Positions 1-22,703 are shown, counted from the first letter of the stretch. The stretch is 64,000 nt of DNA from Bacteroidota bacterium (GCA_024103355.1 JAGFIU010000051.1:19548-83547); one strand, 5' to 3'. The notes: generated by a model from the letters alone, not told the origin. Made by a program: numbers and translations.

Positions 1-1
1 C

Positions 2-187
2 TATGATTGGAAGAAAATGAATAACAACGGAAGTCCTTTGGTATGGGGGCATCCGCAAGGCCCCACACTTACAAGAGTGATTATAGAAGCACTTGAAGAA
101 GCAGTAGAATTGGGCGGAGGATATGTTTTGGTTTTTGGATGTGCAGCCGGAGATGTTGGTATAGCGTCAATTTTTAAAGTAAACTGA
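2..187 (+). CDS. 3'-terminal fragment (C-terminal ~62 aa) of a thiolase (acetyl-CoA C-acyltransferase); the gene starts upstream of the window
   Basis: Frame-2 translation ...NGSPLVWGHPQGPTLTRVIIEALEEAVELGGGYVLVFGCAAGDVGIASIFKV* resembles the conserved thiolase C-terminus (GHPxGxTG...CxGGGxGxA). The stop is at 185-187, 11 bp before the next gene. Confidence 0.5.
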   Translation, partial: YDWKKMNNNGSPLVWGHPQGPTLTRVIIEALEEAVELGGGYVLVFGCAAGDVGIASIFKVN

Positions 188-197
188 GAGAAGAGAT

Positions 198-2288
198 ATG
201 GGAAAAACAATAAGAAAATCAACAATGGAAGCCCTTGGACTGGGAACGGTGTCAGCGATATTTAACAATGGAAAACTGCCGGTTTCTTTAGAAGAAATGG
301 TGGACAAGGTTTTTGGAGATAAGAATAACCGTGGCGCAATGGTCATTTCCGGAGCAGGTGGAATAGTAGGGGCAGGAAAGGTTATGCAGTTTGCATCACG
401 TTTGATGGATTATAACGTACCCATTATTGCCTTGGATTTGCCGGGCGCACCCGATGGGATTGCAAAACAATACAAAGGCTTGCAGGCTTCTTTTGGTGCT
501 GATGGCGCCAACAACATTATGAAGAACATCATCAAGCTGAATTATGATGGTCAAACCTTGCCTCAATCTTTGAAACAATACAATCCTAAATTCTTATTGG
601 AAGCCATTCCTGAAAGATTAGAATTGAAAAAAGCCCATTATGCTTTGTTCAAAAAAGAATATCCTGAGATTCATATTTGGTCAGTTACTTCAGGTTTCCC
701 TTCCAAAGAATTGGGCGTAGGAATTGCTCACCCGGCATTTCCACACGAAATCAATAAAGTTTTTGAAATAGTGGAGGACAGTACTTCAGCGCAAACACAT
801 CTGCTTTGGGCAATGGGGCTGATTCCAATGCAGGTAAGCGATGATTGGTCTTTTGTGCTGGATGTTTTCTTTTGCGGATTGTTACAGGCAAGCATTCAGT
901 TTTGCAACAGAACCAACACTCCTTATTGGAAAGCGGATAAATATATTCGTCAAATTCTCGGACCCAATCCATTCAGAGCACATGATGTGATTGGAGCTAA
1001 GGGAGCTAACTTCCTTACTTGGTCTTGCCTATACCATTTAGGAAAAGAATATGGCGCTTTGTTTGAGCCTACCGGAGAATTAACCGAAAGAAAAGACAGC
1101 GGTCAAAACTGGTATCCGGCTAATCATTTCAGACCTCTGGTAAATTGGCAATTGGATGAAGAAGAGTCTGAAGAATTAAAATCCATCGTGTATGGTGCTT
1201 TAATTCAAATGACCACCATCATGTTGCATGAAAAACGTACTGATTTGAGTACCATGACTGCAATTGGCGAGTTGTGTGCACAGTTTACAAATGGTATCCC
1301 TGCATTTATTCGTAAAATAGGAAGTCAACAGGCTTTGGAATACGTAAATAAATATCATCAACTTGTACCCAAAGCGGCACAGACAACATGGTATCCCGAA
1401 ACGCTGCAAAATCTCAACACTCCCGAATGGCAACAGCTCTATGTGAATGCAGAGCATGACGGCACACACGGGTTTATTACGATCAGCCGTGAGAGCTATA
1501 ATTATGATGTAAACGAAGAACTTAACCGTGCTATTGACTGGCTGCACAGCGAAGGAATCAAGAAAGTGGTATTGACTTCCGATTTTCATTTTTCTACGCA
1601 AATGGTAGGTGCGGATACTACTGAATTTTTTGTGGCTGTCAATGACAGTCATATTGGAGAGAAAATTTCTTCCGATTGGTCAAAAACAGCACGTAGGTTT
1701 TACCATGAGTTTGAAACTTCAATCGGGTTTGTCAACGGTAAAAGATGTATGGGCGGAATGTTGGAGTTGATGATGCATTGCCAATACCTTATAGCACCCG
1801 ATTATGTCAAATTTGCCATGCCGGAAGTAACACTGCCCGTAATTCCCGGAATGGAAGGCTGTCATTGGGTGTTGCGCAAAACAAATACAGACAATCATTC
1901 TAAAATGCTCGAAATGCTTTTGCATGGTCAACAAATCAATGCCCGGCAAGCACTCGGTTTCCTTGTGGATTCTTCCGGCACTATGAATGATTGCCTTGCC
2001 ATGACAAAAAACATTCTTGAAAATGGAGATACGGCTCTGCCCAAAAGAAAAATTATAGAAAATGCGATACCTCATATTGCATCTGAGATTGAGAAAATCA
2101 AATGGTCAGAAAATCCGCAAATCCTTTCAGCACAAAAAGAAATTGCCGGGTGCGTGATTGCTTCTTGTTCTGCAACTGCTGATGAGGCATTACAAATTCA
2201 AGCAAAGGTTTCTGCGCAGTTTATGTCGGGACAGCTATTTCGCAAAGGAAAGATTGGAATTGAATACGATAAATTTTCAAAAAACTAA
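198..2288 (+). CDS. Bifunctional 3-hydroxyacyl-CoA dehydrogenase (N-terminal NAD-binding domain) / enoyl-CoA hydratase (C-terminal crotonase fold), with the domains in reversed order relative to FadB/FadJ
   Basis: N-terminus has VISGAGGIVGAGKVMQFAS, which matches the GxGxxG Rossmann motif of the HAD family. The C-terminal ~250 aa (…GFITISRESYNYDVNEELNRAIDWLHSEGIKKVVLTSDFHFSTQMVGADTTEFF…) is a crotonase-type fold. 696 aa. Confidence 0.65.
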   Translation: MGKTIRKSTMEALGLGTVSAIFNNGKLPVSLEEMVDKVFGDKNNRGAMVISGAGGIVGAGKVMQFASRLMDYNVPIIALDLPGAPDGIAKQYKGLQASFGADGANNIMKNIIKLNYDGQTLPQSLKQYNPKFLLEAIPERLELKKAHYALFKKEYPEIHIWSVTSGFPSKELGVGIAHPAFPHEINKVFEIVEDSTSAQTHLLWAMGLIPMQVSDDWSFVLDVFFCGLLQASIQFCNRTNTPYWKADKYIRQILGPNPFRAHDVIGAKGANFLTWSCLYHLGKEYGALFEPTGELTERKDSGQNWYPANHFRPLVNWQLDEEESEELKSIVYGALIQMTTIMLHEKRTDLSTMTAIGELCAQFTNGIPAFIRKIGSQQALEYVNKYHQLVPKAAQTTWYPETLQNLNTPEWQQLYVNAEHDGTHGFITISRESYNYDVNEELNRAIDWLHSEGIKKVVLTSDFHFSTQMVGADTTEFFVAVNDSHIGEKISSDWSKTARRFYHEFETSIGFVNGKRCMGGMLELMMHCQYLIAPDYVKFAMPEVTLPVIPGMEGCHWVLRKTNTDNHSKMLEMLLHGQQINARQALGFLVDSSGTMNDCLAMTKNILENGDTALPKRKIIENAIPHIASEIEKIKWSENPQILSAQKEIAGCVIASCSATADEALQIQAKVSAQFMSGQLFRKGKIGIEYDKFSKN

Positions 2289-2291
2289 AGA

Positions 2292-3353
2292 ATGACAGAA
2301 AAGATAAAACAATGGCAAATGACAGAACTGAAAGCCGATTTCAAATTGGCAGTTTCTGATATGCCGCAGGTGAAAGAAGATGAAGCATTGGTAAAAGTTG
2401 CCGGATGCGGAGTTTGCCATACAGATTTGAGTTTTTGGCATGATGGCGTAAGAACAAAAAAGGAATTGCCTTTAACGCTTGGTCATGAAATCAGCGGAAC
2501 GGTTATAGAAGGACCTTCGCATCTCAAAGGGAAAAATGTCATTATTCCGGCTGTATTACCCTGTGGCGATTGCGAATTATGCAACAAAGGCAGAAGTAAT
2601 ATGTGCCAGAATCAATTGATGCCCGGAAATGATTTCCATGGAGGTTTTGCTTCTCATGTTGTTGTTCCGTACAAGTATTTGTGTCCTGTTCCGGATGCGG
2701 TTTTGCAAAAATATCAATTAGAAGAATTAGCAGTGATAGCAGATGCTATTTCAACCCCATACCAGGTTTTGAAAAAATCAGAATTGGAGAAAGGTGATTT
2801 GGCTATTTGCATTGGTGTTGGAGGTGTTGGAGTATATGGTGCATTGATTGCCAAAATTATGGGAGCCAAAGTTTTGGCAATAGATATCAATGATGAAAAA
2901 TTAGAACAAGCCAAAAAGAATGGTGTACATGCAACACTCAATTCAAAAGGTTTGGATAGCAAAGAAATTAAAGCCAAAGTAAAAGAAATAGCCAAAGAGT
3001 TGGGCGCACCCAAATACGGTTGGAAAATCTTCGAGTTTTCAGGTACTACAGCCGGTCAGGATTTAGCGTTTAACCTGCTCACTTTTACTTCAAACTTGAG
3101 TATTGTAGGGTTTACCATGAACAAACTGGAAGTAAGATTGAGCAACCTTATGGCTTTTGATGCCAAGCTCATTGGTACATGGGGATGCAAACCTGAGCTG
3201 TATTCAGAAGTAGTTGATTTGATTGCCTCCGGCAAATTGGATATCAAAGACTTTGTTCAAACTTTCCCGATGAGCCGTATCAATGAAGTTTTCCAAAACA
3301 CTTTAGCTCACAAATACACCAAACGTTCCGTATTAGTACCTGATTTTAATTAA
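2292..3353 (+). CDS. Zn-dependent alcohol dehydrogenase (MDR superfamily). Candidate 6-hydroxycyclohex-1-ene-1-carbonyl-CoA dehydrogenase (Had)-like
   Basis: GroES-like N-terminal domain with GCGVCHTDL and a structural-Zn Cys cluster (CGDCELCNKGRSNMC). Rossmann motif GVGGVGVYG. 353 aa. Starts 4 bp after the upstream stop. Confidence 0.8.
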   Translation: MTEKIKQWQMTELKADFKLAVSDMPQVKEDEALVKVAGCGVCHTDLSFWHDGVRTKKELPLTLGHEISGTVIEGPSHLKGKNVIIPAVLPCGDCELCNKGRSNMCQNQLMPGNDFHGGFASHVVVPYKYLCPVPDAVLQKYQLEELAVIADAISTPYQVLKKSELEKGDLAICIGVGGVGVYGALIAKIMGAKVLAIDINDEKLEQAKKNGVHATLNSKGLDSKEIKAKVKEIAKELGAPKYGWKIFEFSGTTAGQDLAFNLLTFTSNLSIVGFTMNKLEVRLSNLMAFDAKLIGTWGCKPELYSEVVDLIASGKLDIKDFVQTFPMSRINEVFQNTLAHKYTKRSVLVPDFN

Positions 3354-3357
3354 ACAA

Positions 3358-4473
3358 ATGAAAATAGAAATGGAAGCATTAAAAAATCACAATATCGTAG
3401 AAGACTACAACTACACTGACATTCTTTATGAAAAACGTCCTTGTTTAAACACTGACGGAACTCCTGTTGACGGCTTGTACAACGCATGGATTATCATTAA
3501 CAATCCCAAACAGTACAACTCTTACACTACCAAAGCTGTAAAGGAAATTATCCTTGCATTTGGTGAAGCTTCCAATGACAGAAGTGTTGTTGCAGTAGTA
3601 TTTACAGGTGTGGAAGACAAGGCTTTTTGTACCGGAGGAAACACCAAAGAATATGCAGAATATTATTCCGGCAACCCGCAGGAATACTCTCAATATATGC
3701 GCTTGTTCAACGATATGGTTTCTGCCATTATGAAATGTGAAAAGCCGGTTATTTCCCGTGTAAACGGAATGAGAATAGGGGGAGGACAAGAAATAGGAAT
3801 GGCTTGTGATTTCACGGTAGCAAGTGATTTAGCTCGTTTTGGGCAAGCAGGACCTAAGCATGGAAGTGCTGCTATTGGTGGCGCAACAGACTTCCTGCAT
3901 TTGTATGTGGGAGTAGAAAGAGCCATGTATTCACTTTCGTTGTGCGAGCCGTGGTCTGCACATCAGGCTTTGCATTATGGCATGATTACCGACATTGCTC
4001 CTGCATTGAAAGTGGATGGGAAATTTATTGCCAATCCTTTGGTCAATATTGAAAAATATGCTGATGAATATGGCAGGGTAATTTTTGGCGCTATGAAAAC
4101 AGGAGAAGAATTAGCAAAAGGAAAAGAGTTGATGACAAAAGGAGAAGTTGATTTGTCAAAGTTGGATGAATTGGTCAACAAGCTCATTGCAAAATTGCTG
4201 CACACCTTTCCGAATTGCCTGCACAAAACACTTTCTGAAGTGCGCAAGAAAAAATTAGAGCATTGGGATAAGAACAAAGAAAGCAGCCGTGAATGGTTGG
4301 CGTTAAATATGATGTCCGAAGCAAAAGCTGGATTCAGGGCTTTCAATTACGGTCCCAAAAATGACAGGGAAGTGGACTTTATCAAACTCCGTCAGTTGTT
4401 GGCACAAGGACACGAATGGAATGAAGACTTGCATCGTGCTATTTCTCCTCAGTTTAAAACCGAAAACGTATAA
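3358..4473 (+). CDS. Crotonase-superfamily protein with a long C-terminal extension (371 aa). Candidate ring-opening beta-oxoacyl-CoA hydrolase (Oah/BamA/BadI-like)
   Basis: Crotonase core (VVAVVFTGVEDKAFCTGGNTKEY…ISRVNGMRIGGGQEIGMACDF) followed by a ~100 aa C-terminal extension. This size matches ring-hydrolysing members rather than the ~260 aa hydratases. Confidence 0.7.
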   Translation: MKIEMEALKNHNIVEDYNYTDILYEKRPCLNTDGTPVDGLYNAWIIINNPKQYNSYTTKAVKEIILAFGEASNDRSVVAVVFTGVEDKAFCTGGNTKEYAEYYSGNPQEYSQYMRLFNDMVSAIMKCEKPVISRVNGMRIGGGQEIGMACDFTVASDLARFGQAGPKHGSAAIGGATDFLHLYVGVERAMYSLSLCEPWSAHQALHYGMITDIAPALKVDGKFIANPLVNIEKYADEYGRVIFGAMKTGEELAKGKELMTKGEVDLSKLDELVNKLIAKLLHTFPNCLHKTLSEVRKKKLEHWDKNKESSREWLALNMMSEAKAGFRAFNYGPKNDREVDFIKLRQLLAQGHEWNEDLHRAISPQFKTENV

Positions 4474-4475
4474 AA

Positions 4476-5248
4476 TGGAAAAGATTAAACTTACATATTC
4501 TCACAATCATTCTGTTGCCAATATCCTCTTGAATGATGGCAAAGGCAATGTGCTGGATAATATAATGATGTTGGAATTGTTGGATTGTTTCAAAGAATTT
4601 GCAGAAAATAAGCACCTCAAACTAATTACATTTCAAGGTGAAGGAAAGCATTTTTCTTTTGGGGCAAGCGTAGAAGAACATACACAGGAATTTGCCGAAA
4701 TGATGCTCAAAACTTTTCACCGACTATTTATGGTGTTGAAGGATATGGCAATTCCTACAATGGCAAAAATTTCGGGTCAATGTTTGGGAGGCGGAATGGA
4801 GTTAGCAATCTTATGTAATTTCTTGTTTGCAGATAAAACAGCAAAACTCGGTCAACCCGAAATTGTATTGGGAGTGTTTCCGCCACCGGCTTCCATTATT
4901 CTCCCGGAAAAAATAGGGCTTTCCCGTGCAGAAGAGTTGTTGTTGAGCGGTAGGAGTATTGATGCAGAGGAAGCATTGAGAATTGGATTGGTGCACAAGG
5001 TATTTGAAGATAAAGAAGCATTGAACCTGGGTACAGAAGAATGGATTGAAAAAAATATTATTCCTAAAAGCGCATCCTCACTTCGATTTGGTGTGAGAGC
5101 AGCCAGGGCAAAATTCAACCATGTGTTGAGTAATTTTTTACCACAACTTGAACAAATGTATCTAAGCCAGTTGATGAATACCAAAGATGCAAATGAAGGT
5201 ATTACTTCATTTTTGGAAAAACGTCAGCCGGCATGGGTAAACGAATAA
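4476..5248 (+). CDS. Enoyl-CoA hydratase/isomerase family protein (257 aa). Candidate dienoyl-CoA hydratase (Dch)-like
   Basis: Crotonase motifs (KLITFQGEGKHFSFGASVEEH…KISGQCLGGGMELAILCNFLFAD). I prefer the ATG at 4476, 3 bp after the upstream stop, over the ORF-track start at 4361, which would overlap the preceding gene by 113 bp. Confidence 0.75.
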
Positions 5249-5261
5249 AGATGAAAAGAAA

Positions 5262-7088
5262 ATGATAGTAGAAAGTGCAGTCATAAAATTTGCAGGAGAT
5301 TCCGGAGACGGGATACAGTTAGCAGGCACCTTGTTTACTGAAAACGTAGCATTGATGGGCAATGCTATCGCTACATTTCCTGATTTTCCTTCTGAAATCA
5401 GAGCACCACAAGGAACTGTTGCCGGTGTTTCCGGTTTTCAGATTCATTTTGGTACCTCGGGGGTACATAGTCCCGGAGATGCACCGGATGTGTTGGTAGC
5501 AATGAACCCGGCTGCTCTCAAAGCCAATATCCACGCTCTCAAGGCCAATTGTTTGATTATTGTGGATGCTGATTCTTTTGGAAAAAGAGATATTGAAAAA
5601 GCAGGGTTTGACAGTAATCCGTTGGAGGATGGAACATTAGAGGGATATCAGGTGATTGCCGCTCCTATTACTTCCTTAACAAAAGCTTCGGTTGCAGAAT
5701 TGGGATTGGACAATAAATCTGCTGACCGTTGTAAAAATATGTTCACGCTTGGGTTGGTGTTATGGTTATTTAATGAATCCTTGGATAGCACACTTCGATA
5801 TTTTGAACAAAAATTTAAAAAGAATCCCGTCATTGAAGCTGCCAATAAAAAGGCGTTGAATGCAGGATTTAACTATGGGTTAAATACAGAAGCGATTAAA
5901 ACTTCATTTACCGTATTACCCGCACCGAAGGCATCCGGAACTTATCGTAACATGACAGGAAACCAGGCAACCGCATGGGGATTTATGGCAGCTGCAGAAA
6001 AGGCCGGAAGACCCTTGTTTTTAGGCTCTTATCCCATTACTCCGGCAACCGATATTATGCAAGAGCTTACCAAGCACAAATGGTCAGGAGCAAGGGTTTT
6101 TCAGGCGGAGGATGAAATAGCCGGAATCTGTTCTGCCATTGGAGCTGCTTTTGCCGGAAATATTGCTGTTACTACTACATCAGGCCCCGGAATGGCTCTT
6201 AAAACAGAAGCCATCGGTTTGGCTGTGATGACAGAATTGCCGATTGTGATTGTGGATGTACAAAGAGGAGGCCCCAGTACAGGATTGCCTACCAAAACTG
6301 AACAAAGTGATTTGATGCAAGCGATCTGGGGAAGAAATGGAGAAAGTCCCGTGGTTGTGCTTTCTGCCGGAACTCCTTCTGACTGTTTTGATTGGGCTTA
6401 TGAAGCAGTGCGCATTGCCGTTGAACACATGACTCCGGTTTTTTTATTGACTGAAAGTTATCTTGGCAACGGAGCAGAACCTTGGAAAATTAAGAAATTG
6501 GCGGATATGCCTGCAATTACTCCCAGAACCTTAGCAAATCCGGATCCTGCATGGAAACCTTATAGCCGTGATGAAGAAAAATTAGCGCGTTATTGGGTAA
6601 TACCAGGCACTGCCGCTATGCAACACCGTATTGGAGGTTTAGAAAAAGATGAATGTACAGGATGCGTGTCCACCAATCCGCAAAACCATGAGAAAATGGT
6701 AAAAATTCGCAAGGAGAAAATTAAAAAAATTGAAAACTACATACCGCTACAACGATACAAAGGCAAAGATGCCAAAAAGTTATTGGTAGTAGGCTGGGGA
6801 GGACAATTTGGTATATTGATGGGAGCCGTAAAAGAATTGCAGGAAGAAGGGAAAGACTTAGCCTATGCCCATTTTAATTATATCAACCCCTTACCAAAAA
6901 ATACGGCAGAGGTGTTTTCTAAATTTGAAAAGATAATTGTTTGTGAATTGAACGATGGTCAATTAGCCAAATACTTGAGGGCGGTGATGCCTCAGTTTCA
7001 GTATGAGCAATACAACAAGATACAGGGACTTCCATTTACCGTAAAAGAACTAAAAGAAAAATTTACACAACTACTTTCTGAATTTTAA
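5262..7088 (+). CDS. korA: 2-oxoacid:ferredoxin oxidoreductase, alpha subunit (KorA-type)
   Basis: 608 aa. N-terminus GDSGDGIQLAG and the overall layout are typical of 2-oxoglutarate/2-oxoacid:ferredoxin oxidoreductase alpha subunits. The beta subunit follows 2 bp later. Confidence 0.85.
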   Translation: MIVESAVIKFAGDSGDGIQLAGTLFTENVALMGNAIATFPDFPSEIRAPQGTVAGVSGFQIHFGTSGVHSPGDAPDVLVAMNPAALKANIHALKANCLIIVDADSFGKRDIEKAGFDSNPLEDGTLEGYQVIAAPITSLTKASVAELGLDNKSADRCKNMFTLGLVLWLFNESLDSTLRYFEQKFKKNPVIEAANKKALNAGFNYGLNTEAIKTSFTVLPAPKASGTYRNMTGNQATAWGFMAAAEKAGRPLFLGSYPITPATDIMQELTKHKWSGARVFQAEDEIAGICSAIGAAFAGNIAVTTTSGPGMALKTEAIGLAVMTELPIVIVDVQRGGPSTGLPTKTEQSDLMQAIWGRNGESPVVVLSAGTPSDCFDWAYEAVRIAVEHMTPVFLLTESYLGNGAEPWKIKKLADMPAITPRTLANPDPAWKPYSRDEEKLARYWVIPGTAAMQHRIGGLEKDECTGCVSTNPQNHEKMVKIRKEKIKKIENYIPLQRYKGKDAKKLLVVGWGGQFGILMGAVKELQEEGKDLAYAHFNYINPLPKNTAEVFSKFEKIIVCELNDGQLAKYLRAVMPQFQYEQYNKIQGLPFTVKELKEKFTQLLSEF

Positions 7089-7089
7089 T

Positions 7090-8109
7090 ATGGATACATT
7101 ACAATGCTTATATAAACCGAAAGAATACGCAAGCGACCAAGAAGTAAAATGGTGTCCCGGTTGTGGTGATTATGCCATTATCAATGCTGTGCAGAAAGCC
7201 TTTTCAGAACTGAATCTGAAGAAAGAAGAAGTTGCTATTATTTCCGGTATTGGTTGTTCATCAAGATTCCCCTATTATATGGATACTTATGGTTTCCATA
7301 CTATACACGGAAGGCCTGCTGCCATTGCAACGGGTGTCAAACTTGCCAACCCTGATTTGAGTGTTTGGGTAGTAAGTGGCGATGGTGATTCGCTGGCAAT
7401 TGGAGGTAATCATTTTATCCATTTGATAAGAAGAAATATTAACCTGAATCTTTTGCTCTTTAACAATGAAATCTATGGTTTGACCAAAGGACAACATTCT
7501 CCGACAACAAAGAAAGGATTGCATACCAAATCAGCTCCTTATGGCACAATTGAAAATCCGTTCAATGTGGGAGAATTGGTATTGGGAGCACAAGGACAGT
7601 TTTTTGCAAGAGTCCCTGATACGGATGTAAAGTTGATGACAAGTGTTTTCATAGAAGCCGAAAAACATCAGGGAACTTCCATTGTTGAAGTTCTTCAAAA
7701 CTGTGTCATTTTTAATGATGAGACCCATGCTTCTGTTACATCTAAAGAAAATAAAATAAAGAACCAATTGATTTTGGAACATGGAAAGCCTATGCTGTTT
7801 GGAGAAAATAATAGTAAAGGCTTGCGTTTAAACGGTTTGGAATTAGAGGTAGTTACCATTGGCGAGAATGGAATCACCGAAAGTGACATTTTGGTGCACG
7901 ATGCTCATTGTAAATCGCCTGTTTTACATCAGATGCTAATTCAGATGAAACTTCCTGACTATCCGGTAGCAATGGGGTTAATAAGGGATGTGGAATCATC
8001 TGTTTATGATAAGGAATTTCATGGTCAGATAAAGGCGGGGAAGGCAGAAGGAAAGATAAAATCAGTTGACGAATTATTTTTTAGTGGAAATACTTTTCAA
8101 GTAAATTAA
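7090..8109 (+). CDS. korB: 2-oxoacid:ferredoxin oxidoreductase, beta subunit (TPP-binding)
   Basis: WCPGCGDYAI…GIGCSSRF…GDGD TPP-binding motifs. 339 aa. Confidence 0.85.
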   Translation: MDTLQCLYKPKEYASDQEVKWCPGCGDYAIINAVQKAFSELNLKKEEVAIISGIGCSSRFPYYMDTYGFHTIHGRPAAIATGVKLANPDLSVWVVSGDGDSLAIGGNHFIHLIRRNINLNLLLFNNEIYGLTKGQHSPTTKKGLHTKSAPYGTIENPFNVGELVLGAQGQFFARVPDTDVKLMTSVFIEAEKHQGTSIVEVLQNCVIFNDETHASVTSKENKIKNQLILEHGKPMLFGENNSKGLRLNGLELEVVTIGENGITESDILVHDAHCKSPVLHQMLIQMKLPDYPVAMGLIRDVESSVYDKEFHGQIKAGKAEGKIKSVDELFFSGNTFQVN

Positions 8110-8122
8110 TAAACAATATACT

Positions 8123-8470
8123 ATGGCTATCAAAATCACTGAAGACTGTATCAATTGCGGAGCCTGTGAGCCCGAATGTCCAAACAAAGCAATTTTTGCC
8201 AATGGAGAACCCTGGACTATGGCAGACGGTACAAACATTACCTCAGACTACACTTTAATGAACGGGAATACCATTGACCCTTTTGCTGAGCAAGAACCGG
8301 TTTCAACTGAATATTACTACATTGTTACCGATAAATGCACAGAATGTGTTGGTTTTCATGATGAACCTCAATGCGCCTCTGTGTGTCCTGTAGATTGCTG
8401 TTTGCCTGATGAAAATCACAGAGAGTCTAGAGAAGAGTTGGAAGCAAAACAAAAGAGATTACATGAATAA
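8123..8470 (+). CDS. fdx: 2x[4Fe-4S] ferredoxin, Allochromatium (Alvin)-type motif with a long inter-cluster insertion
   Basis: Cluster I is CINCGACEPECP (Cx2Cx2Cx3CP). Cluster II is CTECVGFHDEPQCASVCP (Cx2Cx8Cx3CP). About 50 aa separate the two motifs. 115 aa. Confidence 0.85.
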   Translation: MAIKITEDCINCGACEPECPNKAIFANGEPWTMADGTNITSDYTLMNGNTIDPFAEQEPVSTEYYYIVTDKCTECVGFHDEPQCASVCPVDCCLPDENHRESREELEAKQKRLHE

Positions 8471-9094
8471 ATGAGAAGTTTTCTGCAATATATGAATGAA
8501 GCAGCAGCCATTATTTTGGCCGGTGGGGAGTCCAAAAGAATGGGGTTTCCTAAACTCCTATTGCCCTTTGATAGTGGCAAAACCTTTATTGAGCAGATTG
8601 CAGATACTTATGCTAAGGTTATTCAAGGCGAGGTTATTTTGGTTATTAATGCAGAGGTATTGAAAGCTCACAGTACGTTCTTTTCTCAGTTTAAGGATTT
8701 GATAATAGTCCCAAATCATAATCCTGACCTTGGCAGAACATACTCTATCCAGCTTGGATTGGCGAAGACACAGAAAAGAAAAATTTTTATTCAAAATACT
8801 GATAATCCTTTTGTGAGTGAGAAATCGCTTTTGTCAATGCTTGAATTGGCTTCTAAAGATGCTTATGTTTCTCCGAGAAGTAACGGTAAAGGAGGACATC
8901 CGATTTTAATATGCGGAAATGTAATTGATAAGATTGTCAAGGCAGATTATGATAAAAGTTTAAAGAGCATTCTTGCTGACTCTATGCGTATAGATTGGAT
9001 AACAGATGATGCCTCTATGCTTGTGAATATTGATACTCGCGATGTTTATAAACAGTATTTTCCTAATCTAAATACGGAATTTAACAATGCATAA
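8471..9094 (+). CDS. mocA: Molybdenum cofactor cytidylyltransferase / MobA-like NTP-transferase (MocA-type)
   Basis: N-terminal AIILAGGESKRMGFPKLLLPF nucleotidyltransferase motif. Its start codon overlaps the ferredoxin stop. It sits beside xdhC and an XDH-family enzyme. Confidence 0.7.
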   Translation: MRSFLQYMNEAAAIILAGGESKRMGFPKLLLPFDSGKTFIEQIADTYAKVIQGEVILVINAEVLKAHSTFFSQFKDLIIVPNHNPDLGRTYSIQLGLAKTQKRKIFIQNTDNPFVSEKSLLSMLELASKDAYVSPRSNGKGGHPILICGNVIDKIVKADYDKSLKSILADSMRIDWITDDASMLVNIDTRDVYKQYFPNLNTEFNNA

Positions 9095-9898
9095 ATGACA
9101 AGCCCTAAATTACCATATCATCCCAACAAACTCAAATCTGCACTCTGCATTATTGTGGATACCAGAGGCTCTACACCGCGTAAAGCCGGTACTAAAATGC
9201 ATGTATTTGAAAACGGGAAAATTGAGGGAACTATTGGTGGAGGTGCTTTAGAAAAAAAAGTAATTGAAGATGCTCTTGCACAAATAAAAGTGGGCAACCC
9301 CAGATTGTTTGAACACCAGCTTCTCCAACAACATAATATGTGCTGTGGCGGTATGGTAAAGGTATATATAGAACCGGAAGCACAGAAAAATCATTTGATA
9401 ATTTTTGGTGCAGGGCATGTTGGGCAGGAATTAGCAAACCAGGCGGTGAAAGCGGAGTTTGATGTAACTGTGTTTGATGACAGACCCGAATATATACAGC
9501 AAATCACCAACGAAACTATCGAGGCTCAATGCCTTGATTTTTCAGATGCATTAAAGCAAATCTCTTTTGGTGAAAATACTTATATCGCTATTCTTACTTA
9601 CCGGCACGATATTGACCGGGCTTTGCTTCGGTATTGTTTGAGAAAAGAAAGAGCCTATCTCGGTTTTATTGGTAGTCAACGAAAAATATTGGTTACACGA
9701 AAAATGATGTTACAGGAAGGAATAGCAACAGAAGAAGAATTGAACAAAGTAGATATGCCTATTGGTTTGAACATTGGTGCTGAATCACCTTTTGAAATAG
9801 CGGTTAGCATTATGGCAAAACTGATAGAAGTGAAAAACCAAGAGCAGGTTAATACAATTCAACAAATAAAAGACATAGAACAATGCATAAAAGAATAG
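9095..9898 (+). CDS. xdhC: XdhC/CoxI-family MoCo insertion/maturation accessory protein
   Basis: 267 aa with a Rossmann-like C-terminal half (LIIFGAGHVGQELA). Starts directly after the mocA stop. Typical neighbour of XDH-family structural genes. Confidence 0.7.
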   Translation: MTSPKLPYHPNKLKSALCIIVDTRGSTPRKAGTKMHVFENGKIEGTIGGGALEKKVIEDALAQIKVGNPRLFEHQLLQQHNMCCGGMVKVYIEPEAQKNHLIIFGAGHVGQELANQAVKAEFDVTVFDDRPEYIQQITNETIEAQCLDFSDALKQISFGENTYIAILTYRHDIDRALLRYCLRKERAYLGFIGSQRKILVTRKMMLQEGIATEEELNKVDMPIGLNIGAESPFEIAVSIMAKLIEVKNQEQVNTIQQIKDIEQCIKE

Positions 9899-10605
9899 CC
9901 GTCATAACAGGAGCTGCCAAGGGTATTGGAAAATCTATTGCGCAAAGGTTCGCACGTGATGGCTATCAATGTGTATTGGTGGATGTGGATGAAGTACAAG
10001 GGCAGCAATTGGCAAAGGAATTGGGTAAGGATGCGATTTTCCGTTCATGTGATATCAGTGATGAGTCAGATGTTAAAAAGTTGTTTGAAAGCCTTGAGAG
10101 AATAGATGTTTTGATAAACAATGCCGGGATAATTCGTGATAATATGATTTGGAAAATGCCGGTGGAAGATTTTGATAGGGTTGCAAATATCAACCTGAAA
10201 GGAACATGGATGATGTGTCGCGAAGCGGCTTTGAGGATGAAGGAACAAAGAAGCGGAAGAATAGTAAACATTGCTTCTAGAGCGTGGTTAGGAAATCCTG
10301 GACAGTCTAACTATGCTGCTTCAAAAGCGGGTGTGGTAAGCCTGACAAGGGTTCTGGCTTTGGAATTGGGGCGATACGGCATATTGGTTAATGCCATTGC
10401 TCCCGGTTTGATTGATACCCCTTTGGCACAAGGGTTAACGGATGAAGTTAGAGAAAAGCTCATTCAGGCACAACCGACTAAAAGCATGGGAAAACCGGAG
10501 GATGTGGCACATGCAGCCGCTTTTCTGTGTGATGAAAATACCTTGTTTATTACCGGTCAAACCTTGTATGTAGATGGCGGAAAAAGTATTGGAGCAGGAC
10601 TGTGA
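9883..10605 (+). CDS. Short-chain dehydrogenase/reductase (FabG-like 3-oxoacyl reductase family)
   Basis: TGAAKGIGKSIA Rossmann motif, NNAG, and the YxxxK catalytic dyad (YAASKAG). 240 aa. Overlaps xdhC by 16 bp. Confidence 0.85.
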   Translation: MHKRIAVITGAAKGIGKSIAQRFARDGYQCVLVDVDEVQGQQLAKELGKDAIFRSCDISDESDVKKLFESLERIDVLINNAGIIRDNMIWKMPVEDFDRVANINLKGTWMMCREAALRMKEQRSGRIVNIASRAWLGNPGQSNYAASKAGVVSLTRVLALELGRYGILVNAIAPGLIDTPLAQGLTDEVREKLIQAQPTKSMGKPEDVAHAAAFLCDENTLFITGQTLYVDGGKSIGAGL

Positions 10606-10633
10606 AAGTATTGAAAGATGAAAAATAAATGCA

Positions 10634-13426
10634 ATGAGAAAGATAAGTTTAAAAATCAACAACAAGCCTTATACCTTTCTGGCAAACGATTCAGAGACTT
10701 TGTCTCATGTAATTCGTGAAAGGGCAGGGCTTACGGGAACAAAGGTCGGGTGCAGCCAGGGCAGTTGCGGAGCTTGTACAGTCATTGCAGACGGAGAACC
10801 GGTATTGAGTTGCATTACTCCTGCATTTCGATTTGACAATGCTGAAATTCAAACAATAGAAGGGTTATCCAATCAGGGTACTCCGGAACTTTTACAGGAA
10901 TTGTTTGTGCGCAAAGGAGCTATCCAATGTGGTTTTTGCACACCCGGAATGGTATTGACCGCTAAGGATTTTGTAAACAAAAATCCCAATGCAACCAAAC
11001 AGGATATCAAAGAAGCACTATCCGGGAATTTATGCCGCTGTACCGGTTATAAAAAGATTATTGAAGCTGTTACCGAATATACCGAACTCCACAAACAAGG
11101 TGTTGAGCACTTGCCGCCTGTTGAAGAAAGCAGCAAAATCATTGGTGTCAGCCGACCTTATATCGAAGCAGAAAAAAAGGTTTTAGGCAAAGCCCTTTAT
11201 GCCGATGATTTACAATTCAGAAATTTGTTATACTGCAAGTTTCTGCGAAGCACTCATGCTCATGCATTGATTGAAGATATTGATATTTCAGAAGCGCAAA
11301 AAATGGAAGGAGTGGCTTATGTAGCTGTAGGAAAAGAGTTGCCTGAAAAATTCGGAGTCTTGCCTGTTTCGCATGATGAAACGGCTATGGCTATCGAAAA
11401 GACACGCTATTTTGGAGAAATAGTTGCAGCCGTAGCGGCTGAGAGTTTTGAAATTGCTGAAGCTGCATGTAAAAAAATCAAAGTTAAATACAAACCGCTC
11501 AAAACTTATTTTAGCATTGAAGAATCCATTCATGACGTAGGCGACAATGCCAAGATTCACGAACACTGCAAGTTCAACAATAATATTCACAAAAAAGCAG
11601 AATTGCGTTTTGGAAACCAGGAAGAAGGATTTAATAATTCTGATATCATTTCTGAAATGGAATTTGATGTGGAAGGAGTTTCTCATGCTTTTACTGAGCC
11701 TCATTCGGCAACAGCTTATTGGGATGAAAACGGATTGACCATTCACACGGCTACACAAGTTCCTCATTATCTTCACAGAGCTTTAGCCAAAGTAATGCAA
11801 GTTCCATTGAGCAGGGTGCGTGTTATCAAACCTTATGTAGGCGGTGGTTTTGGAGGAAAGAGTGATCCCTTTCCACATGAGATGATTATCTCTCACATTG
11901 CCCGAAAGACAGGCAGGCCTGTGCGCTCCACTTTTACAAGAGAAGAAGTTTTTCTTAGCAATCACGGCAGGCATCCATCCAAATTCAAAATGAAAATGGG
12001 AGCCGACAGCAATGGAATGTTGAAAGTATTGGATGCTGATGTGGCAATAGATGGCGGTGCTTACGGCAGCTTTGGCGTGGTTACTTCATACTATAACGGG
12101 GTGCTATTACAGGCACCTTATGAAATTAAAGACTTTGGATTTAGAACGTATCGTGTTTATACCAACAAGCCTCAATGTGGTGCTATGCGTGGGCACGGAG
12201 CTGTTAATACCCGTTTTGCTGCTGAAACGCTCATAGATGATATTGCCCATAGGTTGAACATCGATCCGTGTGAAATGAGGTTGAAGAATTTTTATAAAGA
12301 AAATGTAATTACTATCGGGCAGTTCAGAATTACATCCAATGGCAGTAGAATGGCTTTGCAGCAAGTAATGGAACGCTCCGGTTGGAAAGACAAGCGTGCG
12401 AACTTGCCGGCAGGACGAGGAATTGGGGTGGGATGTGGTTTCTTCATCAGCGGAAGCGCCTTGCCGATTATCTGGAATGAATATCCTCAAACAGTGGTAC
12501 ATCTGAAATTGGATTTTGACGGAAGAATTTTGATTTCTTCCGGTGCCAGTGATATAGGCCAAGGAAGCGATACCATGCTGGCAATGGTGGTAGCAGAAAC
12601 GATGGGTGTTGATATGCAAAAAGTTTTTGTACTTGCTGCCGATACTTTGCTAACTCCGGTGGATTTAGGAAGTTATTCCAGCCGGGTTACATTCATGTGT
12701 GGAAATGCTGCCAAACAAGCGGCTGAAAAACTTAAATCTGAAATATTAGAAGCGGTTGCCAAAAGAAAAGCAATAGCAATAGAAGAATTGTATATTGAAA
12801 ACAGTCGGGTACGCTCCAATGATAAACAAGTGGATTTAGAATGGTTGGAAGCGGTGGATATGGCTACAGCTCATCGCGGAGCTTTGACGGTTAGCGGTAA
12901 TTATATTTCACCAAAATTAGGAGGCGATTTTAAAGGAGCAGGTGCAGGGTTAAGCCCTTCATACAGTTTTGGAGCGTGTATAGCAGAAGTAAATGTAGAT
13001 AAACAAACGGGGCAGGTAGAATTACTCCATGTCTGGGGTGCACACGACTGCGGAAAAGCACTGAATCCATTAGCAGTTGAGGGACAGTTGGAAGGTTCTT
13101 GGCACATGGGAATAGGACAGGCAGTCAGTGAAGAGATGAAATACTTTAACGGGTTGCTCTTAAATAACAATTTCTGTGATTACAAAATCCCTACCACCTT
13201 AGACACTCCCGAAATAGATACTAATATCATAGAATCCGGAGATCCGGAAGGACCCTTTGGGGCTAAAGAATGTGGCGAGGGAGCTTTACATCCTGTTATT
13301 CCGGCTATAGCCAATGCCATTTTTAATGCCTGTGGAGTGCGCATTACCAAACTGCCCATCAAAGCAGACGAAGTACTGTCACAAATAAAAGCAAATATGC
13401 AAGTGAAGGCGGAAGCAATAAACTAA
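10634..13426 (+). CDS. Xanthine-dehydrogenase-family molybdenum enzyme with the [2Fe-2S] small subunit fused N-terminal to the MoCo-binding large subunit (HcrC+HcrA / CoxS+CoxL-like, 930 aa)
   Basis: N-terminal ~160 aa carries GCSQGSCGACTV, CGFCTPG and CRCTGY, the two [2Fe-2S] motifs. The downstream region has the a/b-hammerhead and MoCo-binding domains, including GGGFGGK. The C-terminal part has GAKECGEGA in place of the usual GxGE catalytic-Glu loop. Confidence 0.85.
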   Translation: MRKISLKINNKPYTFLANDSETLSHVIRERAGLTGTKVGCSQGSCGACTVIADGEPVLSCITPAFRFDNAEIQTIEGLSNQGTPELLQELFVRKGAIQCGFCTPGMVLTAKDFVNKNPNATKQDIKEALSGNLCRCTGYKKIIEAVTEYTELHKQGVEHLPPVEESSKIIGVSRPYIEAEKKVLGKALYADDLQFRNLLYCKFLRSTHAHALIEDIDISEAQKMEGVAYVAVGKELPEKFGVLPVSHDETAMAIEKTRYFGEIVAAVAAESFEIAEAACKKIKVKYKPLKTYFSIEESIHDVGDNAKIHEHCKFNNNIHKKAELRFGNQEEGFNNSDIISEMEFDVEGVSHAFTEPHSATAYWDENGLTIHTATQVPHYLHRALAKVMQVPLSRVRVIKPYVGGGFGGKSDPFPHEMIISHIARKTGRPVRSTFTREEVFLSNHGRHPSKFKMKMGADSNGMLKVLDADVAIDGGAYGSFGVVTSYYNGVLLQAPYEIKDFGFRTYRVYTNKPQCGAMRGHGAVNTRFAAETLIDDIAHRLNIDPCEMRLKNFYKENVITIGQFRITSNGSRMALQQVMERSGWKDKRANLPAGRGIGVGCGFFISGSALPIIWNEYPQTVVHLKLDFDGRILISSGASDIGQGSDTMLAMVVAETMGVDMQKVFVLAADTLLTPVDLGSYSSRVTFMCGNAAKQAAEKLKSEILEAVAKRKAIAIEELYIENSRVRSNDKQVDLEWLEAVDMATAHRGALTVSGNYISPKLGGDFKGAGAGLSPSYSFGACIAEVNVDKQTGQVELLHVWGAHDCGKALNPLAVEGQLEGSWHMGIGQAVSEEMKYFNGLLLNNNFCDYKIPTTLDTPEIDTNIIESGDPEGPFGAKECGEGALHPVIPAIANAIFNACGVRITKLPIKADEVLSQIKANMQVKAEAIN

Positions 13427-13437
13427 TCAATGAAACT

Positions 13438-14376
13438 ATGGAAGCAACACAATCTTACATCAAAGTAAAAACCACGAACGAGGCAATGCAGCAAATCAAC
13501 AGCCTGCAAAATGCTATTTTCGTTGCCGGAGGTACCGATGTCTTTGTAAACAAACAACAAGGAAATATTGAAGCCGGATACTTAATAGATGTTTCGGGAA
13601 TTGAGGATTTAATGACTTGCCGTTTATATGATGACCGGATAGAAATCGGTGCCATGTTTACCCTTGAAAAAATTATCCAATCGGAAACGATTAACACTCA
13701 TTTTCCAACATTGGTTCAAGCAGCATTGGCGGTAGCAACTCCTGTAATTCGCAAAACGGCAACCATTGGAGGCAATGTGTTATGCGAAAATCGTTGTTTC
13801 TATTACAACCAAAGCGAATGGTGGCGAGAAGCCGTAGGGCATTGTCTCAAATGCAACGGGGATATTTGTTTGGCAACAGGGGGTAGAAAAAATTGTTTTT
13901 CAAAATTTGTAAGTGATACCGCACCGGTTTTGATTGCTTATGGTGCCACCGCCATTCTGATAGATGCCGATGGAGAGCGCTGTGTGCCTTTGGAGAGTAT
14001 CTATACTGGTGATGGAATTGTTTCTGTTACCTTAAACAAAAAGACTTTGCTCAAATCCATTGAAATTCCTTTAAGCACAAAAAAGGTAATTTTCAAAAAA
14101 CTCAGACCCAGAAAAACACTTGATTTTACCTCGCTTACTACTGCGGTCTCCCTTGATAATAAAATGAATTTGCGCATGGTCATCGGTGGTGTTGACCCTA
14201 AGCCGATAGTGGTGGAAGGAAATCTGAAAAAAGAAGATTTATTACAATTGGTTACCACAGCCATCAAAAAACCGAGAGTAGTGGAAAATGACTTTTACTC
14301 ACGTACATACCGGAAAGACATGATAAAAGTCTTTATAGAAAACAGTCTTAACGAATTAGGAATCCAAATTAATTAA
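13438..14376 (+). CDS. FAD-binding medium subunit of the molybdenum enzyme (CoxM/HcrB-like), with a cysteine-rich insertion loop that probably binds a [4Fe-4S] cluster
   Basis: FAD-binding fold (IFVAGGTDV). Insertion GGNVLCENRCFYYNQSEWWREAVGHCLKCNGDICLATGGRKNCF has Cys at positions 116, 120, 136, 139, 144 and 153 of the protein. Four of these have 16/8/9 spacing. Confidence 0.8.
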   Translation: MEATQSYIKVKTTNEAMQQINSLQNAIFVAGGTDVFVNKQQGNIEAGYLIDVSGIEDLMTCRLYDDRIEIGAMFTLEKIIQSETINTHFPTLVQAALAVATPVIRKTATIGGNVLCENRCFYYNQSEWWREAVGHCLKCNGDICLATGGRKNCFSKFVSDTAPVLIAYGATAILIDADGERCVPLESIYTGDGIVSVTLNKKTLLKSIEIPLSTKKVIFKKLRPRKTLDFTSLTTAVSLDNKMNLRMVIGGVDPKPIVVEGNLKKEDLLQLVTTAIKKPRVVENDFYSRTYRKDMIKVFIENSLNELGIQIN

Positions 14377-14398
14377 CAAATCATAAAACAGAATCAAC

Positions 14399-14908
14399 AT
14401 GAATGAAGTAGTCAAAGTTTTAACCGGAGAGCACGAAAATATTAAACGTGCCATTGAACATACACATCGCTTGTTTGCAGATATTTTATCCGGCAATGCA
14501 GAACTCAATATGATGTTAGAACGTATTGATTTTTTTAGAAATTATGCAGACGGATATCATCATCATAAAGAAGAAGAAGTCTTGTTTCCTGAAATGATTA
14601 AACGCAATGAAATGCTGGAATACGGTGTTATTCATGAGATGTTGCAAAATCATGAAGACTTCAGAGAAATGCTTTCCGAATTGGAAGATGCTGTAAACGA
14701 TGGAGATGCAGAAGGAGCAAAGAAAAAATTTGAAGTTTATGCAGAAGCTTTGTTAGAACATATTGCTGTAGAAGATGAAGAAGTATTTCAGATTGCCGAG
14801 ACCATTATGAGCGAAGATGAACTACTGACCGTACTCTACCGTTTTGAGGATTGTGACAGAGAGTTGGGAGTGGATGAAAAAAAAGAGTGGGAGAAAAAAA
14901 TAGGGTAG
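14399..14908 (+). CDS. Hemerythrin-like (HHE cation-binding domain) protein
   Basis: 169 aa with H…HHxxEE…H…E pattern (YHHHKEEEVLFPEM, HEMLQNHEDF, LEHIAVEDEE) typical of bacterial hemerythrin-like di-iron domains. Confidence 0.65.
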   Translation: MNEVVKVLTGEHENIKRAIEHTHRLFADILSGNAELNMMLERIDFFRNYADGYHHHKEEEVLFPEMIKRNEMLEYGVIHEMLQNHEDFREMLSELEDAVNDGDAEGAKKKFEVYAEALLEHIAVEDEEVFQIAETIMSEDELLTVLYRFEDCDRELGVDEKKEWEKKIG

Positions 14909-15008
14909 AAGGATTCTGCAATTATTGAATTGATATGTTTTACCTAAAATAAAGCAACTCGGGTTGATGCAATAAAACCAAGATTGTATTTACTTTTGTT
15001 CCAACATT

Positions 15009-15917
15009 ATGATAAACATCACCTGTAAAAGTAGTACACTGCGAATCGCGATAGCGCAAGCAATCGTTAAAGTGAGCACAGAAGAAACAATCAATGCCAT
15101 GAAGGAAAATCGTGTACCCAAAGGGGATGTTTTTGAAATGTCCAAGACTGCGGGTTTGTTTGCTGTTAAACGAACCAGTGATATGATTCCCGATTGCCAT
15201 CCTTTGCCCGTAGAATATACCAATGTAAGATTTGAAATGAAAGGGTTGGAGGTTCATATTGAAATGGAAGTTCATACAATCTACAAAACAGGTGTGGAAG
15301 TTGAAGCTATGCACGGAGTTTCAGTTGTTGCATTGACTATGTATGACATGCTCAAGCCGATTGATAAGCATATTGAAATTTGTTCTATTAAACTGAAGGA
15401 AAAGAAAGGGGGTAAATCTGATTTTAAAGATAATTTCAGAAAAGACTTAAAAGCGGCTGTGATTGTTTGTTCTGACAGCATTTCCGGGGGACAAAAGGAG
15501 GATAAGGCCGGTAAGTCAATAATAGAAAAACTTGAAAACTGTGAGGTTTCCATTTCCTCATATTTGATTATTCCTGATGAAATAGAAGAAATCAGAAAGA
15601 AAGTACAATCATTGGTTGCTTCAAACAATCTGATAATTTTGACAGGTGGAACAGGTTTGTCACCGAGAGATGTAACCCCGGAAGCATTAAAAGGAATGTT
15701 TGACAGAGAAATCCCCGGAATTATGGAAGCGGCCAGAAATTATGGACAAGAAAGAACTCCGTTTTCTATGCTTTCCCGTGGGGTAGCAGGTTTGATCGGC
15801 AATACACTTGTGCTTGCATTGCCCGGCTCTACTAAGGGAGCAAAGGAATCAATGGATGCCCTATTCCCGTATGTTTTACATATTTTTAAAATAATTGGCG
15901 GTGATAGACACGATTAA
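15009..15917 (+). CDS. moaC: Molybdenum cofactor biosynthesis fusion protein: MoaC (cyclic pyranopterin monophosphate synthase) N-terminal plus MogA/MoaB (molybdopterin adenylyltransferase) C-terminal
   Basis: N-terminal half has MoaC-like sequence (…[31 protein letters not shown]…). C-terminal half has a MogA/MoaB-like GGTG motif ([17 protein letters not shown]). 302 aa. Confidence 0.8.
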
Positions 15918-22457: not shown

Positions 22458-22678
22458 CAGGGAAGTCAAAAATATTCTCAATATATCAATCAGGTGGCAA
22501 AATGATTTGCTGCCTGATTTGCTTATGCTGTCTTGTATTTACTGCCAAATCCCACGACTCCTTAGCCAACTACACAGTGAAAAAAGGAAAATACAATCTT
22601 ATTTGGAGTGCGCTATAAATTTTAAATCGGTTATTTTTATAATTCAAAACTAAACATTCATTACTCAACATTCTTGCC

Positions 22679-22686
22679 TACATTTG
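22679..22686 (+). promoter_or_regulatory. Bacteroidetes-type -7 promoter element (TAnnTTTG) upstream of the desaturase gene
   Basis: TACATTTG lies 18 bp upstream of the ATG at 22704. This argues against the TTG start at 22674. Confidence 0.3.
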
Positions 22687-22703
22687 CGCCACTCAATAAA
22701 ATA

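Follow-up and report, generated by a model that had tools for sequence, protein, structure and literature searches.

A had-oah-dch block from an uncultured member of the Bacteroidota and its probable place in a Thauera-type benzoyl-CoA cluster

What do enzymes that open a dearomatized ring do in a stretch of DNA that holds no enzyme to dearomatize it? The question is raised by 64,000 nucleotides (nt), here called the window, from an uncultured Bacteroidota bacterium (GCA_024103355.1, JAGFIU010000051.1:19548-83547). At positions 2292-5248 the window encodes a zinc-dependent alcohol dehydrogenase (Zn-ADH) of 353 amino acids (aa), an extended crotonase of 371 aa and a standard crotonase of 257 aa. 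An initial annotation had likened these to Had, Oah and Dch, which act on the ring in the benzoyl-CoA pathway. It had also noted the lack of a benzoyl-CoA reductase, and it offered two explanations: a reductase encoded upstream of position 1, or a ring that is non-aromatic or differently activated. The evidence described below favors the first. The three genes most probably (about 85%) form the had-oah-dch part of a complete benzoyl-CoA cluster of the Thauera type (class I, dependent on ATP and ferredoxin).

The had-oah-dch block

The three open reading frames (ORFs) were found on the + strand where they had been placed, at 2292-3353 (353 aa), 3358-4473 (371 aa) and 4475-5248 (257 aa); the last starts at an internal ATG (4475) within a longer mechanical ORF (4361). 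Stop-to-ATG gaps are 3 nt between the gene for a 696-aa protein and had, 4 nt between had and oah, 1 nt between oah and dch, and 13 nt between dch and korA. The gene order and tight packing that had been described as translational coupling are borne out, but there are no overlaps and the coupling itself can only be presumed. Gene identities come from curated hidden Markov models and comparison with PDB entries. Equivalog status follows the curated NCBIfam cut-offs, and Pfam and NCBIfam scans covered all window ORFs of at least 150 aa.

The 353-aa protein is, as judged from its sequence, 6-hydroxycyclohex-1-ene-1-carbonyl-CoA dehydrogenase (Had), with a predicted NAD+-dependent activity. It matches TIGR03201 over its full length with 455.9 bits (cut-off 338.65), and the next family reaches 141 bits. 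Compared with PDB entries 7QUL and 7QUY, deposited under that enzyme name, it scores 369 bits at 49% identity (345 aa aligned), and no ordinary alcohol dehydrogenase exceeds 131 bits. The alignment with the solved Had shows the zinc-ligand and dinucleotide motifs GCGVCHTDL, LGHEISG, PCGxCELC...C and GVGGVG unchanged. The initial annotation had named a grouping with generic alcohol dehydrogenases as the result that would speak against a Had; with the equivalog cut-off passed and 369 bits against 131, the protein does not group there. An identical Had is encoded on a small metagenome contig (L085:98-2279), followed after 16 nt by a variant of Oah with 367 rather than 371 aa. This variant suggests strain-level variation or recombination inside the cluster.

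The 371-aa protein is likewise assigned as 6-oxocyclohex-1-ene-1-carbonyl-CoA hydrolase (Oah), the enzyme predicted to cleave the ring to 3-hydroxypimelyl-CoA. TIGR03200 matches residues 8-359 with 598.8 bits (cut-off 464.45), compared with 128.8 bits for BadI and 124 for MenB. Matches to ECH_1 and to solved MenB structures are confined to about residues 43-225, which leaves the C-terminal 150 residues as an Oah-specific extension; an extension of about 110-150 residues past the crotonase core is expected of Oah/BamA and is present. A neighbor-joining tree (100 bootstraps) was built from representatives of clusters at 50% identity together with one annotated BadI and one annotated MenB. The representatives are metagenome proteins, two of which carry Oah names given by their sources, and the experimentally characterized proteobacterial Oah proteins stand outside the sampling. 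In this tree the window protein falls in a clade (99% bootstrap) with the source-named 6-oxocyclohex-1-ene-1-carbonyl-CoA hydrolases, separate from BadI plus MenB (100%). The phylogeny that had been proposed as a check therefore places the protein with Oah and not with ordinary MenB-type crotonases, and a BadI or MenB identity was rejected on both the scores and the tree. A homologue search returned Bacteroidota relatives only, with 78-94% identity, and every named relative among the top 120 is called Oah. A tblastn search of plasmids with Oah gave only BadI/MenB-type matches (52-59% of the query, its first 55%, at 36-42% identity), which served as outgroups.

Two peptides encoded by the window oah, QYNSYTT (3511-3530) and GQEIGM (3784-3801), correspond to the sites of the widely used bamA marker primers SP9 and ASP1. 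The low-GC codons at these sites would presumably give about 3-4 mismatches per primer, and bamA PCR surveys may overlook these Bacteroidota genes.

For the 257-aa crotonase the best family is TIGR03189 (Dch) with 230.7 bits, a lead of 85 bits over all others (at most 145 bits). In the alignment with EchA8, its segments GGGMELA and QPEIVLG pair with GGGCELA and GQPEIKLG, and both glutamates that are catalytic in enoyl-CoA hydratases are present. The protein is probably a cyclohexa-1,5-diene-1-carbonyl-CoA hydratase by these comparisons, and since its score stays below the family cut-off it is filed as Dch-like. The proposed match of the triad to the Dch, Had and Oah steps holds at equivalog level for Had and Oah, while for Dch it holds as a best match only. 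The order had-oah-dch recurs in 25 related loci.

The benzoyl-CoA reductase upstream of the window

The 64 kb is indeed without a benzoyl-CoA reductase. Searches by tblastn with BcrC, BcrB, BcrA, BcrD and the HGD-D and activase proteins described below gave no reductase match in the six frames of the window, and its scanned ORFs contain no BcrAD_BadFG, HGD-D or AOR (BamB) domain. A class II reductase in the window was rejected, since neither an AOR-type BamB nor associated Bam subunits occur there.

Contigs of the same strain were located by exact-sequence look-up of Oah and Had. The Logan metagenome contigs L001 and L002/L083 match window positions 1-11519 and 1-6653, respectively, with 99.97% identity. 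They encode copies of the 696-aa protein that differ by one residue, and they extend upstream. Position 7710 of L083, the longest, corresponds to window position 1. Going upstream from there, the gene order is thiolase (398 aa), a 614-aa fusion protein, a 405-aa HGD-D protein, a 582-aa ligase, BcrD and a partial BcrA, all co-directional with the window array and with gaps of no more than about 30 nt throughout. The 287-aa BcrD scores 330.4 bits with TIGR02261 (cut-off 312.85), and its gene ends about 5.8 kb before the window start. The BcrA fragment comprises the C-terminal 330 residues of 475 aa, and its best match is TIGR02259. Extension of the contig upstream, which the initial annotation had proposed as a check, thus brings bcrA and bcrD into the same strain.

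The full set can be read in L003, the species-level genome nearest to the window (proteins about 90% identical, gene order the same), where bcrC, bcrB, bcrA and bcrD lie directly upstream and are preceded by genes for molybdenum cofactor biosynthesis. Its BcrB (661 bits, cut-off 487) and BcrD (323 bits, cut-off 313) pass as equivalogs. For the Bcr subunits of this genome and of the same-strain contigs, the Thauera-type families TIGR02259-63 outscore the Bzd-type families TIGR03190-92. Conservation was followed through the best 80 of 288 stretches that a BcrD search retrieved from species-representative genomes (72-91% identity). Each of the 66 loci whose flank upstream of bcrD measures 4.5 kb or more carries bcrC, bcrB and bcrA; among the 65 with at least 9 kb of downstream flank, had is present in 51 and oah in 46. 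The apparent lack of a reductase is a window-edge effect, the puzzle having arisen because the edge cuts the cluster inside the thiolase gene. The first of the two explanations offered is therefore the one that the upstream bcr genes support, and the second, a non-aromatic or differently activated ring, is no longer needed.

Nine loci (L005, L024, L037, L038, L045, L053-L055 and L071) have no had-oah-dch at a distance of up to 10 kb from bcrD. Downstream of the activase gene, most of these loci carry a fusion of 3-hydroxyacyl-CoA dehydrogenase and enoyl-CoA hydratase (HAD-ECH) and, after it, a protein of the hydantoinase/oxoprolinase family (acetophenone-carboxylase-like); in L005 the HAD-ECH fusion precedes a thiamine pyrophosphate (TPP) enzyme and a HisC-like aminotransferase.

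Electron supply, the molybdenum enzyme and genome context

The block belongs to a co-directional array on the + strand (2-15917) in which intergenic gaps are at most 28 nt, except for 100 nt before the last gene. The array opens with the 3' end of the thiolase gene (2-187), the last 61 codons of a 398-aa gene cut at the window edge. By tblastn, positions 2-184 are 100% identical to residues 338-398 of the L002 thiolase, and the full gene in L002/L083 encodes Thiolase_N and Thiolase_C domains. Next is the divergent 696-aa protein (198-2288), with ECH_1 at residues 436-586 and a borderline 3HCDH_N at 52-199 (21.5 bits, gathering score 22). It is collinear with the canonical HAD-ECH fusion of L005 (23% identity, E=1e-14), and a PDB sequence search with its N-terminal 434 aa gave no match. 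The protein is a divergent HAD-ECH fusion (HAD N-terminal, ECH C-terminal), with oxidation of 3-hydroxypimelyl-CoA, of a side chain, or of both as its candidate role.

Downstream of dch lie korA (5262-7088) and korB (7090-8109), the alpha and beta (TPP) subunits of a two-subunit 2-oxoacid:ferredoxin oxidoreductase. KorA, with POR and POR_N domains, scores 646.6 bits with TIGR03710 (cut-off 482.75); KorB, with TPP_enzyme_C, scores 259 bits with PRK11866 and 252 with TIGR02177 (cut-off 261.9). The adjoining gene (8123-8470) encodes a 115-aa 2x[4Fe-4S] ferredoxin of the YfhL-family dicluster type (NF033683, 94.6 bits, cut-off 86) with the motifs CxxCxxCxxxCP and CxxCx8CxxxCP. KorAB and a dicluster ferredoxin form the electron-supply arrangement of the class I system of Thauera aromatica. 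The alpha/beta architecture and the adjoining ferredoxin are observed here; the specificity of KorAB for 2-oxoglutarate is predicted, and the ferredoxin is the probable electron donor to Bcr and to the molybdenum enzyme.

That enzyme belongs to the xanthine-oxidase family and resembles 4-hydroxybenzoyl-CoA reductase (Hcr). Its gamma (2Fe-2S) and alpha (molybdopterin) subunits are fused in one protein (10634-13426) with Fer2, Fer2_2, Ald_Xan_dh_C and MoCoBD_1/2 domains. The best match of the fused subunit is TIGR03194 (HcrA) at 815 bits (cut-off 994.55), followed by XdhA at 552, and its N-terminal part matches TIGR03193 (HcrC) with 156 bits (cut-off 257.8). The FAD subunit (13438-14376) is HcrB-like, with 206 bits for TIGR03195 (cut-off 404.55) and 148 bits for PDB 1RM6_B, where the next match has 62. 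About 40 extra residues within its FAD_binding_5 domain form a cysteine-rich Fe-S loop, in which Cys120/136/144/153 align with Cys122/138/146/155 of 1RM6_B. The latter are ligands of the [4Fe-4S] cluster peculiar to 4-hydroxybenzoyl-CoA reductase. Because the subunits miss the Hcr cut-offs, the enzyme is filed as Hcr-like. Together, KorAB, the ferredoxin and the Hcr-like enzyme already pointed, within the window, to a class I, ferredoxin-dependent system.

Between the ferredoxin and the fused subunit are genes for a MocA-like molybdenum cofactor cytidylyltransferase (8471-9094; NTP_transf_3, and TIGR03310 at 108.6 bits, below its cut-off), an XdhC-family maturation factor for xanthine-oxidase-family molybdenum enzymes (9095-9898; XdhC_CoxI and XdhC_C, and TIGR02964 at 143.7 bits, cut-off 161.6) and a FabG-like short-chain dehydrogenase/reductase (SDR) (9883-10605; adh_short_C2, 219.7 bits). 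The SDR had been counted with the fusion and the thiolase as a beta-oxidation gene. Instead it is syntenic with the maturation module: it adjoins XdhC/MocA in 19 loci, and HcrCA as well wherever the flank is long enough, and a homologue is present in 31 loci. It stays with the module even where the module lies upstream of bcrC in divergent orientation. Since it travels with the molybdenum enzyme, the SDR is unlikely to be a beta-oxidation enzyme.

The last two genes of the array encode a 169-aa hemerythrin-domain protein (14399-14908; PF01814, 63 bits) and a bifunctional MoaC/MoaB molybdenum cofactor biosynthesis protein (15009-15917; NF002947, 404.6 bits, cut-off 285). The hemerythrin gene lies inside the cluster of an O2-sensitive pathway and has homologues in the clusters of L025 and L055; its product could be an O2 sensor or scavenger. 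A scan of the 3' end of the cluster found promoter-like sites no more often than in shuffled sequence and no terminator-like site; the scan does not cover Bacteroidota promoters.

The source record, an 87,513-bp contig from a metagenome-assembled genome labelled 'Bacteroidetes bacterium', lists the proteins of the region as MCO6495773-MCO6495784. Had (MCO6495774.1) and Oah (MCO6495775.1) are already named there by NCBI, and Dch goes under the generic name of an enoyl-CoA hydratase family protein. The system is of a textbook kind, the class I pathway with Dch, Had and Oah. A chimeric or misassembled contig was rejected on the agreement of three independent assemblies at 99.97%. GC content is 40.2% in the aromatic cluster (1-15917) and 36.1% in 15918-64000, and GC at third codon positions is 35% and 29%, respectively. 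This contrast, along with about 86% identity of BcrB across Bacteroidota orders, fits lateral spread within the phylum or strong constraint. From 16 to 64 kb the window contains housekeeping genes, including some with type IX secretion (T9SS) sorting domains, and on account of these domains the contig was assigned to the Bacteroidota. Tandem Peptidase C10 (streptopain-like) paralogues of about 870 aa (44808-47432 and 47439-50045, both on the - strand) each have an N-terminal Spi inhibitor and a T9SS C-terminal sorting domain. The interval 56445-58390 (+) holds a gene for a restriction endonuclease of the MvaI/BcnI family, which shares 4 nt with a 411-aa ORF whose match to a DNA methylase domain is weak and below threshold; the pair is probably a type II restriction-modification system.

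A pathway model, its rivals and its relatives

Substrates, activities and electron route are assigned here from homology, by analogy with Thauera aromatica. An aromatic acid would first be activated to its CoA ester. The HcrCAB-like enzyme (10634-14376) would dehydroxylate 4-hydroxybenzoyl-CoA to benzoyl-CoA, which BcrCBAD, from genes about 5.8-10 kb before position 1, would reduce with two electrons to cyclohexa-1,5-diene-1-carbonyl-CoA at the expense of ATP and reduced ferredoxin. Dch would hydrate the dienoyl-CoA, Had would oxidize the 6-hydroxy group with NAD+, and Oah would add water and cleave the ring to give 3-hydroxypimelyl-CoA. The HAD-ECH fusion and the thiolase could then convert this product to glutaryl-CoA and acetyl-CoA, with KorAB re-reducing ferredoxin from 2-oxoglutarate.

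Several observations weigh against this model. Dch does not reach its equivalog cut-off (230.7 against 292.5 bits). In L003 neither BcrC (417 bits, cut-off 421) nor BcrA (409 bits, cut-off 578) does so, and all Hcr subunits fall short, though each has its Hcr family as best or near-best match. Substrate specificity could differ for these reasons. The genes bcrB and bcrC were read in close relatives only, since the same-strain contig stops inside or just before them, and all 80 best related genomes are metagenome-assembled. Finally, the CoA ligase next to bcrD is no recognized benzoate-CoA ligase; it comes nearest to acyl-CoA synthetases of long-chain or generic type, with scores that fall far short of the cut-offs.

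The scores of Dch, BcrA, BcrC and the Hcr subunits would also suit a cluster that serves a ring-substituted analogue of benzoyl-CoA (methyl-, hydroxy- or other), like the dedicated paralogous sets known for methylbenzoates. The atypical ligase and an extra module with HGD-D and activase proteins, which is always present, point the same way. But BcrB, BcrD, Had and Oah pass their cut-offs, and BcrB is the HadB-alpha-like subunit that we take, by analogy, to bind the substrate. Moreover, each gene is single in the 20-kb flanks of the related loci, and within these flanks no second, canonical set stands alongside. A substituted substrate is therefore improbable. Still less likely is a triad that works without a dearomatizing reductase, on dienoyl-CoA derived from alicyclic acids (e.g., from cyclohexanecarboxylate via acyl-CoA dehydrogenases) or on some other non-aromatic ring. 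Geobacter is reported to feed cyclohexanecarboxylate into Dch/Had/Oah, and the 64 kb in itself holds no reductase. Against this stand the same-strain bcrA and bcrD, co-directional and 5.8 kb upstream, the linkage of bcrCBAD with had-oah(-dch) kept in dozens of species-level genomes, and a cluster with no acyl-CoA dehydrogenase gene.

A route of the Rhodopseudomonas type would make the extended crotonase a BadI-like 2-ketocyclohexanecarboxyl-CoA hydrolase and the dehydrogenase an analogue of BadH. The MenB/BadI-type crotonase core is shared, as the scores of BadI (129 bits) and MenB (124 bits) show. The Oah model, however, reaches 599 bits, the tree separates the protein from BadI plus MenB with 99-100% support, and the BadI proteins of plasmids match only the first 55% of Oah with 36-42% identity. 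BadH is an SDR, whereas the dehydrogenase here is a Zn-ADH like Had. At the level of sequence this route is already refuted, and the Thauera-type cluster is the reading retained.

The extra module lies between bcrD and the thiolase gene, at L083:1887-6684 (L002:821-5618), 1.0-5.8 kb upstream of window position 1. It comprises the 582-aa acyl-CoA ligase, the 405-aa HGD-D protein and the 614-aa fusion of a ketopantoate-reductase/D-2-hydroxyacid-dehydrogenase-family domain with an activase. A single HGD-D gene occurs between bcrD and had in 64 of 65 loci, and the ketopantoate-reductase-family/activase protein in 63 of them. The closest relative of the HGD-D protein is the HadB alpha subunit of 2-hydroxyisocaproyl-CoA dehydratase (3O3M_A, 174 bits, with three cysteines aligned), ahead of MbdO (119) and BzdO (90); no gene for a HadC-like beta subunit was seen beside it in the module. 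HadI, HgdC and MbdQ are the nearest relatives of the activase domain, and in L069-L074 the fusion is split into two genes. An AMP-forming ligase precedes the HGD-D/activase pair and is replaced by an ADP-forming acyl-CoA synthetase in about 12 loci. The pair usually precedes a HAD-ECH fusion, a thiolase or both, and three loci add a HisC-like aminotransferase.

Such a module may be an entry route by way of an (R)-2-hydroxyacyl-CoA (aryl-lactyl-CoA) dehydratase. A more far-reaching version, which we regard as tentative and rather unlikely, makes the window the lower half of a Bacteroidota-specific class I variant: the module would feed in aryl-2-oxo or aryl-2-hydroxy acids derived from phenylalanine and tyrosine via a cinnamoyl-type CoA, and beta-oxidation by the HAD-ECH fusion and thiolase would then lead to (4-hydroxy)benzoyl-CoA. 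A sequence from arylpyruvate through cinnamoyl-type CoA to benzoyl-CoA was discussed recently for a benzene degrader (PMC13416013). Were this version true, anaerobic or hypoxic degradation of aromatics would have been overlooked in Flavobacteriales and Saprospiraceae that are abundant but uncultured. The HGD-D/ketopantoate-reductase-activase module is in any case a candidate for a new entry route into the benzoyl-CoA pathway.

About 74 of the best 80 related genomes are named as Bacteroidota lineages (such as Flavobacteriales, Saprospiraceae, Vicingaceae and Sphingobacteriaceae). No cultured anaerobic benzoate degrader is known from this phylum, and full-text searches of the literature brought up no account of a class I Bcr cluster in it. 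The wide spread of the class I benzoyl-CoA cluster in uncultured Bacteroidota, complete and tightly conserved across 66 or more species-level genomes, is mildly new. So is the conserved module of HadB-like dehydratase and ketopantoate-reductase/activase between bcrD and had, which lies outside the window. The contig also carries genes related to O2: a 4-hydroxyphenylpyruvate-dioxygenase-like gene (26085-27212, -), a fatty-acid desaturase (22674-23777, +), a heme-copper-oxidase subunit I-like gene (37373-38683, +) and a multihaem cytochrome c with TPR repeats (58886-60823, +). These genes make it probable that the organism also uses O2 for respiration or inhabits oxic-anoxic interfaces. Given O2-dependent enzymes and a hemerythrin, one may ask how largely aerobic or hypoxic lineages make use of an O2-sensitive reductase.

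Among known systems, the closest likeness is to Thauera aromatica (bcrCBAD, fdx, korAB, dch, had, oah, hcrCAB). Both have a Thauera-type Bcr, a Zn-ADH as Had, an extended crotonase as Oah and a crotonase as Dch, together with a two-subunit 2-oxoacid:ferredoxin oxidoreductase, a dicluster ferredoxin and a Mo/FAD/Fe-S Hcr-like enzyme with the four-cysteine loop in its beta subunit. The host here is in contrast a low-GC uncultured member of the Bacteroidota, Hcr gamma and alpha are fused, the ferredoxin has an insertion of about 45 residues, and the divergent Dch, BcrA, BcrC and Hcr score below their cut-offs. Between bcrD and had there are extra genes, which encode an acyl-CoA ligase, one HadB-like HGD-D protein and the fusion of a ketopantoate-reductase-family domain with an activase, and hemerythrin and molybdenum cofactor genes are embedded in the Bacteroidota cluster.

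The BamR/BamQ/BamA system of Geobacter and Syntrophus, with its class II reductase BamB-I, carries out the same three ring steps, and Oah shares the BamA equivalog family. Here, however, the window has no AOR-type BamB or other Bam subunits, and the linked reductase is the ATP-dependent class I enzyme. With Rhodopseudomonas palustris (BadK/BadH/BadI) the cluster has in common the Thauera/Bad-type family of reductase subunits and the MenB-like core of the ring hydrolase, but the hydrolase is of the Oah and not the BadI type, and the dehydrogenase is a Zn-ADH (Had) and not an SDR. The upstream module recalls HadBC/HadI of Clostridioides difficile and FldABC/FldI of Clostridium sporogenes, with its HadB-alpha-like HGD-D protein and its HadI/HgdC/MbdQ-like activase. 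It differs from them in having one HGD-D gene, an activase fused to a ketopantoate-reductase/D-2-hydroxyacid-dehydrogenase-family domain and a ligase or ADP-forming synthetase in place of a CoA-transferase, and in being embedded in a benzoyl-CoA reductase cluster.

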